A stretch of 64,000 nt of DNA from Octopus vulgaris. Its lineage: Eukaryota. The position numbers were made by a program, and so were the translations under genes. Under the pieces are notes generated by a model. The model did not search any database and was not told where the DNA came from. It worked only from the letters and a program-made list of their open reading frames with translations. This document shows positions 12,014 through 60,094 of this stretch, piece after piece (position 1 is the stretch's first letter; every line of letters begins with the position of its first letter). The stretch covers positions 42,222,001 to 42,286,000 of the forward strand of contig OX597838.1 in assembly GCA_951406725.2 (NCBI GenBank), read 5' to 3'.

Positions 12014-12427
12014 GAAATGGAGACAAGGAGGTTGACAATGATTTATTATTAACAAATTGGTTATCTTCGCTTCTTACAGCCGTTTCAATTAATACTCAAT
12101 AATTTAATTACAAATTAAATTACATTAAATTTGCGTTTATGTGACACGAATATAATTTCATCAGAGGAAAAAAAAAACCATGTACTTTTGGATGTTGTGT
12201 CTGGGCCTATCAATTCATTTCAGCAGACTCGTTTCAGGTCCGCATACAACATCCAAAGGTACATCTTTTTTTTCCTCTGATGAAATTATATTCGTGTCAC
12301 ATAAACGTAAATTTAATGTAATTTAATTTGTAATTAAATTATTGAGTATTAATTGAAACGGCTGTAAGAAGCGAAGACGACCAATTTGTTAATAATAAAT
12401 CATTGTTAACTTCCTTGTCTCCATTTC
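12014..12427. mobile_element. ~414 bp fold-back element, each ~195 bp arm carrying a hammerhead motif (Penelope-like pLTR/retrozyme type)
   Basis: 12014-12208 is the reverse complement of 12236-12427 with few mismatches. Confidence 0.85.
12272..12371 (+). ncRNA. type I hammerhead ribozyme motif with long AT-rich helix II (mirror copy 12070-12169 on minus)
   Basis: TTCCT-CTGATGA (12277-83)-AATTATATTC..GAGTATTAATT-GAAA (12355-58)-CGGCTG-TA-AGAAG; helix I is weak. Confidence 0.65.
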
Positions 12428-15400
12428 CTTTTCTTTTAACTGGACACACGGACACACACATACGGGGGAGGGAGAGTCTCATACCAAATATTATGAGTTG
12501 AAATTTCATCCTTTCCATTAGAGGAGCAGAACTTCCTTTCAGATTGTCCAACATTGAAATACCAATTGGCTTTAAGCTGGATCCACTTCTTACTGTTGGC
12601 TCAAAGTCGCAGAGCTACACTTAGTATTTTAAGGATAAATTATTTCAGACAACTTTTGACTGCTACACAAAAAAGAACCAACAATCTAAGCTCCCTTGCT
12701 AGCTATCAATTTCACATTAGTTTTAAATTGTCATAAAAGCTTAAGGTAACATGCAGTAAAACCGATTTGTCAGCCGATCACCAAAATGGCCACATGGTAT
12801 GGCCACATTTACCGATTGCATCTCCAGTCTGGAAACTCCATCTTGCTCACTACTTCCAATGGAGATCTTGACAATTTTATCTCTTTCAAAAAAAGCACAA
12901 AAGTACAATTTCTACACGTCAAGGAAGCTATCTCAAAGACATCACAATATCTAATAACTTCTCCGGGAGATTTCACATCCATAACAACAAAAACTGCAAA
13001 CCAAAAATACCATTTCTACACAAATTAATTTCCTGCATTGCATCCATAAGAAAGCCAGACAAATACCTTCTCTCAGTTATTTATCTTAAAAGGTTTTCAT
13101 TTCTTTGGACATTGATTCACCACAGTTCCAATGTCTTGCAGATGACTCGATAGAATCCCACAACATTATTCAAAACTTTGGACACCGTTTTTTAATTCAA
13201 AAGCTCAACCACTTGTAAAAACGTTTATAAAATAAAATTAAAAAACAGCGCAGCACCCAAGGCTTTCAGAAACATTTTATTTTTCTTGCACAGAATTGTT
13301 GAAGCACGAAATAAACAACTTTTGTCAGTTATTAGTTGTCCAAACACTGCCTCCTTCAACAATTCCATGCTTTCTGAAATCCACCAACACAACTCTTGAC
13401 ATACCAATTCCACCCTTTTCTCTTTATGGTGGGTTTTACTAATCATCTGTTTTCAGGTATTTTATTCAGTGTACAACATTTCTCACTTTCAATGCTGTCT
13501 TTCTTTACTTTGTTTGACTTTCTTTTACTCTTTTCCGATGAATTGTAATGTATTTGAATGCTGCTTACAACAAAAATGGGCAAACTTCTTCATGAATTGG
13601 GTCACAGTACAAAAAAAAATTTTCAAGGTAATTTTTTATCAGGCGTGCTACTCAGAAAGTCCCACAGGCTGCAGTGTATCCATAATCGATATACAATAAG
13701 CTCGCTGTTAGAGGACTGGTTTGAATATAAAAACTGCCGTTGTTTAGCCCCGGGTCTACTTTGATTGAGCAGGCTTAGGATCAAAGAGGTGTCCATCTGT
13801 GACCATCCCTATTTCTATTTATATCAGAGATTACATTATCCAATGTGTCCTTAGCTTTTTTGAAAGACAGTTAGGTGTGATTTCAGGGAATTGGCATGCA
13901 CGCGTATCAATGTGTGTGTGTATTATATCAAACATGACTGTGTTTAGTCTAATTAAAATTTTTTTCCGTTTTCTCATTATTTGTTAATGTTAACTTTGGC
14001 CAAGTTTATCAAAGCTTCTTGATTTTCTCCGTCCCACCTTCAGGGCAATTATCATGCTTTTTCTTACACTTCGTTATTCATTTCACACACTAGGAGAGTT
14101 TTTTTTTTCGTTTGAAGTTCGTTAAGAGCGTAGCTGCTCATTGCTTTTACCCATTTCTGAACCCACCAACTCCAAGAGGTTTTATGACGTGGGTCACAGA
14201 GATCTCAAGCAGCAAATGTCATGATGATGCAATCCATCTGAAAGCATTCAATCAGGGAAATTCCATACACAGCCTCCTCCTTATTCTCATCTCCATAATT
14301 GTTATCTGTTATCTATGAGTATTTTGGGTCTTCTCTGTGTCCCTGTTCAATACAGATGACCTTAAACAAGTCTTAATCTTAAACTTTACTTAATCTCTCT
14401 CTCTCATGGCCACTGTTCATAGATTTTGCATCAATACAACCCCAACAACTAGCATGGTGTCCTCTAATTTATTATGCTTGATGAAGTATTTATAAGGAGT
14501 TTGATACTTTCAGCACCACTATTTCCATCGAGGGCAGATAGTGCAACATTTGGCCCAGTGAAGAGCACCTTGACCTTCAACCTCAATGTTTTCTTGTTGC
14601 TTTATCTTCCAATCCTTGACATGTTTATCCCAGAAGATTTTTTATCTGGAAAAGTCTTTTTATGTTATCTAAAAGTTCTGTTTGTTGTTATTGAAACTTT
14701 GAGGCTTCAAACCCCCGATAACAAATCAACAGACATGTCAAGTATTAAGTGAAGCATAGTTAAATTATTTCAGGACAATTGACGAGTTTGAACCCTCATC
14801 AATGCAATCATTCACACAACCCTTTTTTTCTTTTCTTTATTTCATTTTTTACAACTTTTAAAAAATAGAATCAACATCAAATTCCATTGTTACACATGGT
14901 GACAGCACTAAGCAATGATGCGTATGAATACCAGCTGTGATCCCATGTTTTATTTACAGCAATCCATGGAACAGTGCTAGCAGTCATTGAATGATGACAA
15001 GAACATCATAAGAGGGACCTGGTGCTGAAGAGGAGATAACCACTCTGAAATGCATGCATCCCAAACTCTAACTGGAGAACAGTGGTTTGACTTGGTGTAT
15101 TTACATGTGTACAGCGAGAAATTTTCTGTGTCAACATTCAATGAATGGCTTTCTTCTAGGTTTGAACATGCCTCAAGCATATTTGAACTGGTAACAAGGT
15201 TGTAATTCTATTGTTCTTTTGCCAATGATAAATGCTAGTTCGGAGTTTCTGGGATCAACTTTGCCTTCCTTCCGCATTTTGCTGTGGAGTTCTTCATTAG
15301 TAATTTTATTCTTCATCATTTTGCTCTCCATCCGAGGAAGCCATTTCTCTCTTCTAATGCAAAACACCTTTCTGTCCCTCGTTACTACTCCCCACCAGTT

Positions 15401-15809
15401 GAGATGGGGGTGGGGGTCTTGCCTTGTAACTTATTCAGTGACCTCATGGCTGCTGGTGTCACATATAAAGCACCTGGCACACTCTGTCAAGTGATTGCTG
15501 TGAGGAAGAGCATCCAGCCGCAGAAACCGAGAGCAGAGCTTAATGCAGACTTCTGACTTTGCAACTCATGTCAACCCATCCAATCTCTACCAGCAAGGAA
15601 AACAGATGATGATGTTGCACTGCATTTTCCTTAAAATAAGGCAGTCCAAGCATTTGCAGGAAGCAAATTAGACCCTACAGAAATAGAAAATATCTTCTTA
15701 ATAGGTCTTCATTTAAACATTTGTGAAATGTTGCTCATGGCATCTGATGCGGGGTTTAGCACTGCCAAACCGCTTGGAGAAAGTTTCAGGAGTTGTTTAA
15801 TAAGAACAA

Positions 15810-16360
15810 TGGTTTCAAATTTTGGCAGAGGGCCAGCAGCTTTTTGAGGGGAGGGGCAAGTAGATAACATTGACCCCAGTTCTTGACTGGTTCTTCATTT
15901 TATCAACCTCGAAAAAGATGAAAGGCAAAGTCAACCTCGGTGGAATTGGAACCCAGAACATAAAAGAGATGGAATGAACACTGCAAAGCATTTATGCCAA
16001 ATCACTAATAATTCTTTCTGATTTTGGCACAAGGCCAGCAATTTTAAGGGGAGGAGGAAATTCATTACATTGCCCCCCCCCCTGCCCCAGTACTTGACTG
16101 GTACTTTATTTTATTGATGAAGAAAGGGTGGAAAGGCAGCATTTGAAGCCAGAATACAAAGAGCCTGAAGAAATGCTGCTAGGCATTTTGCCTGACACAT
16201 TAATGGGTCTGCCAGCTTGGCATCTTAATTCTCCCAGGGGCGGGGTCAGCTCAATTACATTGGCTCCAATGCTAAACTGGTACTTCTTTCATTGAACCCA
16301 AAAGGAAGCAAGGAAGAAACCGTAGCAGCATTTAGTCCGACATGCTAACAATTCTGCCTT
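15810..16360 (-). mobile_element. cluster of decayed SINE family B copies
   Basis: Repeated TTTTGGCAC/GAGGGCCAGCA, GACTGGTACTT and GAAAGGCAAAGTCAACCTCGG blocks. Confidence 0.7.
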
Positions 16361-16487
16361 CAATAATCAGAAAATATAACGGCAACATTAGCAACAGTAA
16401 TAATTGTATTATCAAAGAATAACTCACAGAACCACAACTTGATAATATAAAATTTTAATCAAATAAAGTCAACAAAACCACATTTTG

Positions 16488-59560: not shown

Positions 59561-59728
59561 AGTACCCACCACAGCATGTATGTGTATGTATGTCTGTATA
59601 GATGTATGCATGTCTGTAATATATATATATATATATATATATATATACTTTATTTAAAAGCAGCAGAAATATCACAAAAACTGTTACTCAGAGTTTCACA
59701 TTCCCGTTTGTTGGACAGTTTTTCTAAC

Positions 59729-59775
59729 AAAACTGTCTGATGAACAGGAACGTGAAACTCTGAGTAACAGCTTTT
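59729..59775 (+). ncRNA. canonical-core type I hammerhead ribozyme in fold-back element 59648-59803; predicted cleavage after A59766
   Basis: AAAACTGT-CTGATGA-AC(AGGAAC)GT-GAAA-CTCTGAG-TA-ACAG-C-TTTT; the minus-strand arm has a decayed core CCAACAA. Confidence 0.8.
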
Positions 59776-60057
59776 GTTATATTTCTGCTGCTTTTAAATA
59801 AAGCATATCGCTCTACCTCTGGTATTTGAGTACTCTTTTTTCCACCTTGTTTCACACTTATGTGCCTACTCTGGTATATATATATATATATATATATATA
59901 TATATATATATATATATATATATATATATATATATATATATATATATTCTTTCCTACTTACAAAAATCTGCGTTCTGTTGTGTCATTCTCTTTTAGTGCC
60001 TTATAATTTAACACACACACCGGTAAGATTTCCACTCATTTTCTTATTTATTTTTTT

Positions 60058-60094
60058 CTAAAATTTTCGTTGTGTCTTGCAACCTTTTTAATAG
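60058..60094 (-). ncRNA. degenerate U3-A8-type hammerhead-like motif
   Basis: CTA-TTAAAAA-G-GTTG(CAAGACA)CAAC-GAAA-AT-TT-TAG; G5 lost. Confidence 0.4.

Follow-up and report, generated by a model that had tools for sequence, protein, structure and literature searches.

Why should a single stretch of octopus DNA carry so many sequences shaped like the hammerhead ribozyme, and what put them there? The stretch in question, hereafter the window, is 64,000 nucleotides of the Octopus vulgaris genome (GenBank assembly GCA_951406725.2, contig OX597838.1, positions 42,222,001 to 42,286,000), in which a first-pass annotation had described about ten hammerhead loci of several unrelated families. That observation is confirmed in part, and the class itself was already known. 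Judged from sequence, the motifs are very probably type I hammerheads that sit close to the 3′ termini of Penelope-like elements (PLEs) of many families, and of one 362-bp retrozyme; PLE enzymes likely placed them in (TA)n tracts, and in the window most copies are damaged. They are real, typical of the genome and known in kind, adding members with variant cores to two existing classes, the PLE minimal hammerheads and the retrozymes.

A hammerhead-shaped type I motif is present at all 13 coordinates that had been listed. They belong to 10 insertions, some of them being paired inverted arms of the same insertion (12070/12272, 29362/29731, 38277/38652 and the 59729 hairpin); one further motif, at 32787, had been overlooked. 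We scanned the window with a type I descriptor in which the core, the A15.1-U16.1 pair and helices I and II without a break were obligatory and helix III pairing was left free, with 40 block-shuffled windows per setting as the control. At the strict setting (helix I of at least 4 bp, helix II of at least 3 bp) the descriptor passes only 29745 (+), 31314 (-; A6 replaced by U, with position 6 left free) and 32792 (+), against means of 0.05-0.15 matches in the shuffled windows. Looser settings add 39309 (+), 40325 (-), 59737 (+) and 60091 (-), and the loosest scan gives 12 matches against a shuffled mean of 4.35 and a maximum of 8, so that loose matches alone are partly chance. Judging by relatives elsewhere in the genome that show the motif, the other window coordinates are damaged copies of real families; at least eight window motifs show helix or core damage. 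The weakest locus is 25365, where the putative core at 25278 was read by eye, in an alignment with three relatives.

The first-pass annotation had inferred a very large, diverse population from this local density and had proposed a descriptor search against shuffled sequence. We sampled 120 stretches of 10 kb (1.2 Mb) at round coordinates on contigs C1-C25 of the 2.8-Gb, microsatellite-rich genome. Helix III is self-complementary in 39 of the 42 descriptor matches (one core is counted twice, leaving 38 distinct), whereas the reversed sequence gives three matches, none palindromic, and eight shuffles give 2-10 matches, 0-3 of them palindromic. Extrapolation to the genome yields about 91,000 intact-looking motifs (bootstrap 61,000-124,000), an estimate that covers neither damaged nor very long-looped copies; a lineage with C at core position 4 (C4) adds 10 motifs per 1.2 Mb. 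The sampled matches form 23 BLAST clusters, of which 18 are singletons, and three of the singletons are non-palindromic and probably chance matches, so dozens of families are likely. The proposed population is thus borne out in both size and diversity, and the density of the window is ordinary (3 strict motifs against 2.0 expected). An extra base between positions 9 and 10.1 is found in 21 of the 42 matches, and a (TA)n tract lies at most 258 nt downstream in 30 of them, compared with 26% of random places. About one third of the sampled hammerheads (loci L011-L070 and L161-L220) combine a helix II span above 40 nt with palindromes of 8-10 nt, which may be the design of a distinct PLE clade; helix II spans 50-115 nt in five window families.

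Could the motifs nevertheless be chance matches in AT-rich, repeat-rich DNA? Loose descriptors do give about four matches per shuffled window, a few of the sample matches are probably chance, and an Rfam scan of the window at E≤1 showed no hammerhead family among the 150 matches listed of 189, these being miRNA and snoRNA models on microsatellites. The excess of palindromic matches over the controls, together with thousands of exact copies where a reversed-pattern control has none, leaves this explanation a negligible probability: chance origin is already refuted for the population, with 25365 alone the exception. Since the Rfam scan showed no such motif among those 150 matches, such genomes are under-annotated.

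The motifs had also been associated with PLEs. This association is direct for two of 11 families (31281 and 60058), and for the others it is inferred from insertion ends. The 60058 motif belongs to a 5′-truncated PLE whose open reading frame (ORF) remnant encodes a CX4CX2C linker and a GIY-YIG domain (E 4e-4, below the Pfam cut-off), with a frameshift near 61470; a tblastn search of the window with two PLE proteins found only this remnant, at 61.4-62.0 kb. Elsewhere, the 60058 motif lies downstream of a same-strand GIY-YIG ORF in 9 of 19 other loci, and at locus L251 a motif of this family follows a 665-aa frame encoding reverse transcriptase (RT) and endonuclease (EN). The 31281 family is linked to an ORF in loci L256 and L258; in the former, its motif, which has U at core position 6 (U6), follows an RT+EN frame and is repeated in partial tandem. 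Both the L251 and L256 frames carry the CX4CX2C linker before a C-terminal EN (RT and EN motifs identified by eye), and a CX2-5CxxC linker is described as a mark of Neptune/Nematis elements (PMC8557442; here and below, published work is cited from excerpts of the papers named). The (TA)n tract at 59875-59947 is flanked by two different hammerhead-bearing elements with their 3′ ends facing.

The insertion ends extend the association. In the 31281 family, the 3′ end is fixed about 100 nt beyond the cut site, in (TA)n, and 5′ truncation is variable (10 of 10 loci). In the 59729 family, two (TA)n tracts enclose one short and one long arm in 20 of 20 loci (18 insertions), these loci having been chosen with a palindromic query, which favours such hairpins; in the window copy one arm is longer by a tail of ~67 nt. 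Fixed 3′ ends, 5′ truncation, an inverted 5′ copy, a one-end tail and an AT-rich target, the insertion traits of EN-bearing (EN+) PLEs, are all present.

From these ends we infer a PLE enzyme as the copier, two-site priming and the density that would result. The RT/GIY-YIG protein would cut (TA)n on both strands, and reverse transcription would begin inside the RNA, at two sites that lie downstream of the ribozyme by ~50-250 nt. Nearly every insertion, however truncated, would then retain the ribozyme, often twice as an inverted pair; a start just downstream of the ribozyme, which even short stubs keep, would explain the high motif density. Active master elements would form a double hammerhead in which two copies pair through the palindromic helix III and which is predicted to cleave the tandem transcript weakly or with protein help. 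In the retrozyme, a 362-nt monomer would be freed by cleavage and, once circular, would act as the template for copying around the circle. For the window families dimer cleavage is predicted only, and the pairs in the window lie on opposite strands and therefore make no double hammerhead within one transcript; if read through, they would form a long hairpin.

The retrozyme offers the closest view of the insertion ends. The 29362/29731 locus is a retrozyme of the non-LTR kind (LTR, long terminal repeat) with a canonical type I hammerhead: its unit is 362 bp, within the 150-450 bp of such elements, non-coding and tandem (up to 5.5 units), with one type I hammerhead each. Its pattern has 1,417 matches in the genome, many of them 362 bp apart, and none in a reversed-pattern control, and the predicted circular fold is rod-rich (z -6.6). 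Merging gave 42 loci, one of which was complex and was set aside. Two-armed inverted insertions make up 29 of the remaining 41; 21 of these pair an end at unit positions 165-180 with an end at 230-246, one has both ends at the first site and none has both at the second. With independent 50:50 choice of ends, at most one same-site pair in 22 has P ~5e-6. Such ends abut (TA)3 in 55 of 62 cases. An arm exceeds one unit in 33 of 41 insertions, a figure inflated by the selection of loci on the ribozyme. The two ends both lie away from the cut site, so copying began from either a circle or an uncut multimer; since an uncut multimeric transcript would produce the same pattern, the circle remains a proposal. 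The head-to-tail joint is found in contigs of three of four sequencing runs, where tandem DNA would look alike; of the runs listed as containing the unit none is recorded as RNA, and 14 are only presumed to be so. Cofolding, a weak test, predicts an intermolecular helix III favoured by ~6-10 kcal/mol. We take the loop 1 and loop 2 letters of this hammerhead to resemble the Schistosoma type. At L076:519-927, next to a young copy, lies a retrozyme subfamily that has diverged from the 362-bp unit (71-78% identity) and shares its two end positions.

The retrozyme multimers could instead stem from satellite-type amplification after insertion (unequal crossover), as discussed by Li et al. 2026, and not from copying of a circle. 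Tandem units within one locus are indeed nearly identical, and the circular form of the RNA is a predicted fold only. We consider this improbable, however, in view of arms of up to 2,000 bp that share the same two unit start positions at (TA)n, have scattered 5′ stops and lie on either side of the inversion joint. The insertion ends carry the PLE signature, which is mechanism-level support for the mobilisation of retrozymes by PLEs, as already proposed (PMC7229834; bioRxiv 10.64898/2026.07.22.740005).

The core varies among the lineages. Exact matches of the 31281 lineage number 21,922 with U at position 6 against 1,034 with A, C or G there, and the U6 copies show every one of the four bases at position 7; the pattern has no match in the reversed-pattern control, and the window copy shares 92-97% identity with 10 further copies. 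A U3-G8 core for 31281 was rejected, because helix II then fails. A sister lineage carries C4, which appears in 10 of 63 one-mismatch matches. Of 38 cores in the 59729 family, 26 have CCG or the CCA that CpG decay derives from it, and by this sequence pattern the master probably carried C4. Thus, of the core letters U4 and A6, A6 is not kept in the 31281 lineage and U4 probably not in the 59729 master, whereas other families keep them. Among the variants already reported from nature are U3-A8, U4C and A6C, of which U4C and A6C are less active in vitro (PMC3088659). No natural U6 hammerhead appears in the excerpts of the core-variant literature searched or among the 56 families of the PMC4209133 supplement; Lunse 2016 and Arkhipova 2017 lie outside this coverage.

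These variants raise the alternative that what maintains the motif is chiefly its role as a folded RNA signal, for protein binding or as a dimer scaffold, with the U6 and C4 lineages, at the least, able to do without cleavage. The predominance of U6 with a free position 7, the C4 cores and the reduced activity of A6C and U4C all fit it, as does the finding that catalytic mutants left insertion in vitro unimpaired (PMC11167929). Yet G5, G8, A9, GAAA, A15.1-U16.1 and a non-G at position 17 are constant, by eye, across subfamilies with differing flanks, the catalytic-core pair C3-G8 has been swapped to U3-A8 in each of four window families, and a U4C viroid is still infectious (PMC3088659). On balance we regard a mainly structural role as unlikely, if a serious contender. 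A broader proposal, put forward tentatively and somewhat doubtful as a whole, is that this is among the densest hammerhead populations counted (more than 100,000 with core variants); that its largest lineages spread after fixing U6 or C4, so that PLE hammerheads would be protein-assisted or largely non-cutting RNA signals; and that the one-each ends of the retrozyme reflect the action of a single dimeric PLE enzyme that primes the two broken DNA ends on one and the same circular RNA.

Several results weigh against type I hammerheads carried, and a retrozyme mobilised, by PLEs. Pfam gave no family in the L251 or L256 frames; a PLE ORF lies within 1.2 kb upstream in only 2 of 39 sampled matches (two PLE queries), so that for most families the PLE link rests on insertion ends; and window motifs 12272, 25365, 27411, 32792, 38277, 39299, 40288 and 59729 showed no ORF link. 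No retrozyme sequence, the start-site region included, matched an autonomous PLE among the loci compared, 7 of the 29 two-armed retrozymes have one end elsewhere, and 12 of the 41 are one-armed. Covariation is modest: across retrozyme subfamilies it amounts to three pairs (96.9% of cells paired), a number reached in 99 of 500 shuffles, and within the 38652 family to six pairs with many changes of the CpG-decay type, which we do not take as proof of selection because CpG decay yields the same types. Minimal hammerheads have low activity in vitro (PMC4209133), PLE ribozyme activity is low or protein-dependent and dispensable for insertion in vitro (PMC4209133, PMC11167929), and one of nine frog retrozyme dimers was cleaved (bioRxiv 10.64898/2026.07.22.740005). 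With poor or protein-dependent cutting in the minimal hammerheads published so far, a population of ribozyme motifs, most of them dead copies, is a better description than a ribozyme population. A host-selected network of regulatory ribozymes would have nothing in its favour beyond the number of motifs, and is most improbable given the damage to so many of them in the window and the neutral CpG decay of the old families.

The loci also differ in design (Table 1). All had been ascribed one minimal plan with a short palindromic or near-palindromic helix III; the palindrome holds as a shared design, and the details were wrong at 60058 (AATT) and 31281 (ACGT). Helix III was said to be too short to close a hairpin, which the 10-nt palindrome of the 38277/38652 family contradicts, as it could close a small one. 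Nor is there one minimal design for all, 29731 being a canonical retrozyme hammerhead and not minimal. At 12193-12240, a second candidate motif found no support as a family motif.

Table 1. Hammerhead-bearing features of the window and their coordinates.
Feature	Position	Strand	Details
Two-armed inverted insertion	12014..12427	both	Motifs ~12272-12371 (+, core 12277-12283) and ~12070-12170 (-); helix II span ~70 nt, helix I mismatch, damaged; relative with same layout in locus L082
Degenerate motif, 25275-25414	within 25186..25469	+	Putative U3-A8 core 25278-25284; helix II span ~115 nt; short inverted arm at 25186-25257
Minimal hammerhead	27411..27462	-	Core with two substitutions; helix III ACTAGT; core intact in 2 of 5 relatives (loci L279, L283)
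Retrozyme insertion, 362-bp unit	29198..30009	both	Inverted arm 29198-29632 (-), direct arm 29631-30009 (+); outer ends lie at (TA)n and at unit positions 176 and 234; mirror hammerhead 29368-29407 (-) lacks 2 nt of helix I
Canonical type I hammerhead	29739..29780	+	6-bp helix I, 4-bp helix II; U3-A8 core at 29745; helix III ACGCGT
5′-truncated PLE, 3′ stub	31153..31392	-	(TA)n end ~31135-31152; minimal hammerhead 31282-31319, U6 core 31314-31308
Hammerhead overlooked earlier	32787..32873	+	Core 32792; helix II span 58 nt; relatives in 9 matches
Old two-armed inverted insertion	38252..38722	both	Motifs 38277-38322 (-) and 38652-38697 (+), both damaged; textbook motif in 22-row family alignment
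Motif, 39300-39388	within 39158..39416	+	Core 39309; short inverted arm 39158-39229 without core
Minimal hammerhead	40288..40331	-	U3-A8 core at 40325; helix III ACCGGT; weak helix I; one relative in locus L064
Fold-back insertion between two (TA)n tracts	59648..59874	both	Motif 59729-59775 (+), decayed mirror ~59676-59723 (-)
5′-truncated PLE	59948..62164	-	C-terminal ORF remnant ~62014-61395; 3′ untranslated region with 60058 motif; ends at (TA)n 59875-59947
Minimal hammerhead of adjoining PLE	60058..60094	-	U3-A8-type core, G5 mutated; helix III AATT

The window contains other mobile and repetitive DNA. Non-LTR retrotransposon ORF fragments lie at 10230-11240 (+), 32870-34963 (+) and 44183-44707 (-), with a PHD-like match at 10230 and RVT_1 at 34055-34960 (E 1.8e-20); we presume them to be of RTE type. 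Broken LINE reverse transcriptase pieces (RVT_1), which we take to be CR1/L2-type, lie at 58162-59687 (-), beside the 59648 fold-back insertion, and at 52689-53432 (+). There is a mariner (Mos1-type HTH_48) transposase N-terminal fragment at 43635-44099 (-; E 7.6e-19), a 4-kb (TA)n/(TATG)n-type microsatellite with extreme GC skew at 18288-22358, a 66-bp tandem of 4.4 copies at 11394-11674 and a 230-bp tandem of two copies at 8360-8832, these tandems being SINE-like units. Outside the window, a frame at L258:4352-5917 (+) is fused to a microsatellite-derived frame and has at its end a stretch resembling PIF1 helicase (by eye, of Helitron type).

Since the class, the palindromes, the diversity within one genome, the opposite-strand pairs and counts in the thousands are all reported for the minimal hammerhead ribozymes of PLEs (Cervera and de la Pena 2014, PMC4209133), their presence in the octopus is no surprise. 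The value of this population is that dozens of independent families and high-copy U6, C4 and U3-A8 lineages are material for asking whether PLEs need ribozyme cutting at all. The motifs share with those published ones the type I fold, the palindromic helix III, the extra base between positions 9 and 10.1 and the U3-A8 variant, and likewise come as many families per genome, mostly single truncated copies, with opposite-strand pairs 100-700 bp apart. They differ in that the 56 families listed there include no cephalopod, U6 or C4, and in that the octopus motifs often have longer palindromes (8-10 nt) and a helix II that spans 50-115 nt. The ~91,000 motifs here compare with 2,000-9,000 (Schistosoma 2,000 plus 1,300, coelacanth 4,000, Xenopus 9,000), counts that are not strictly comparable as the descriptors differ; other descriptors again gave more than 6,000 in 16 families for Acropora and 126,247 for axolotl (PMC7229834). 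A literature search on octopus Penelope hammerheads turned up work on Naiads. According to a review (PMC6765202), the short PLE hammerheads of Lunse et al. 2016 have a palindromic short stem III and cleave as dimers, and the likeness here is in the stem.

With Neptune/Nematis EN+ PLEs (Craig et al. 2021, PMC8557442) and the Poseidon element PAc (Frangieh et al. 2024, PMC11167929), the carriers share the C-terminal GIY-YIG, the CX4CX2C linker, the AT-rich target, the inverted 5′-truncated copy and the one-end tail, which is ~60-67 nt here and 30-40 nt there; the clade likeness comes from the linker, not from an RT tree. The 362-bp retrozyme resembles metazoan non-LTR retrozymes (Cervera and de la Pena 2020, PMC7229834; Li, Clavereau and Pollet 2026, bioRxiv 10.64898/2026.07.22.740005) in its non-coding tandem unit with one canonical type I hammerhead, its self-paired circle and its length (350-390 bp in mussel), and differs in its U3-A8 core. 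Those papers argue for PLE mobilisation from co-occurrence and pseudo-long terminal repeat (pLTR) homology, to which the insertion ends now add their signature: for an anole PLE, two internal start sites and cutting and extension on two strands have been shown (PMC11167929), and the two-end pattern of the octopus retrozyme matches them.

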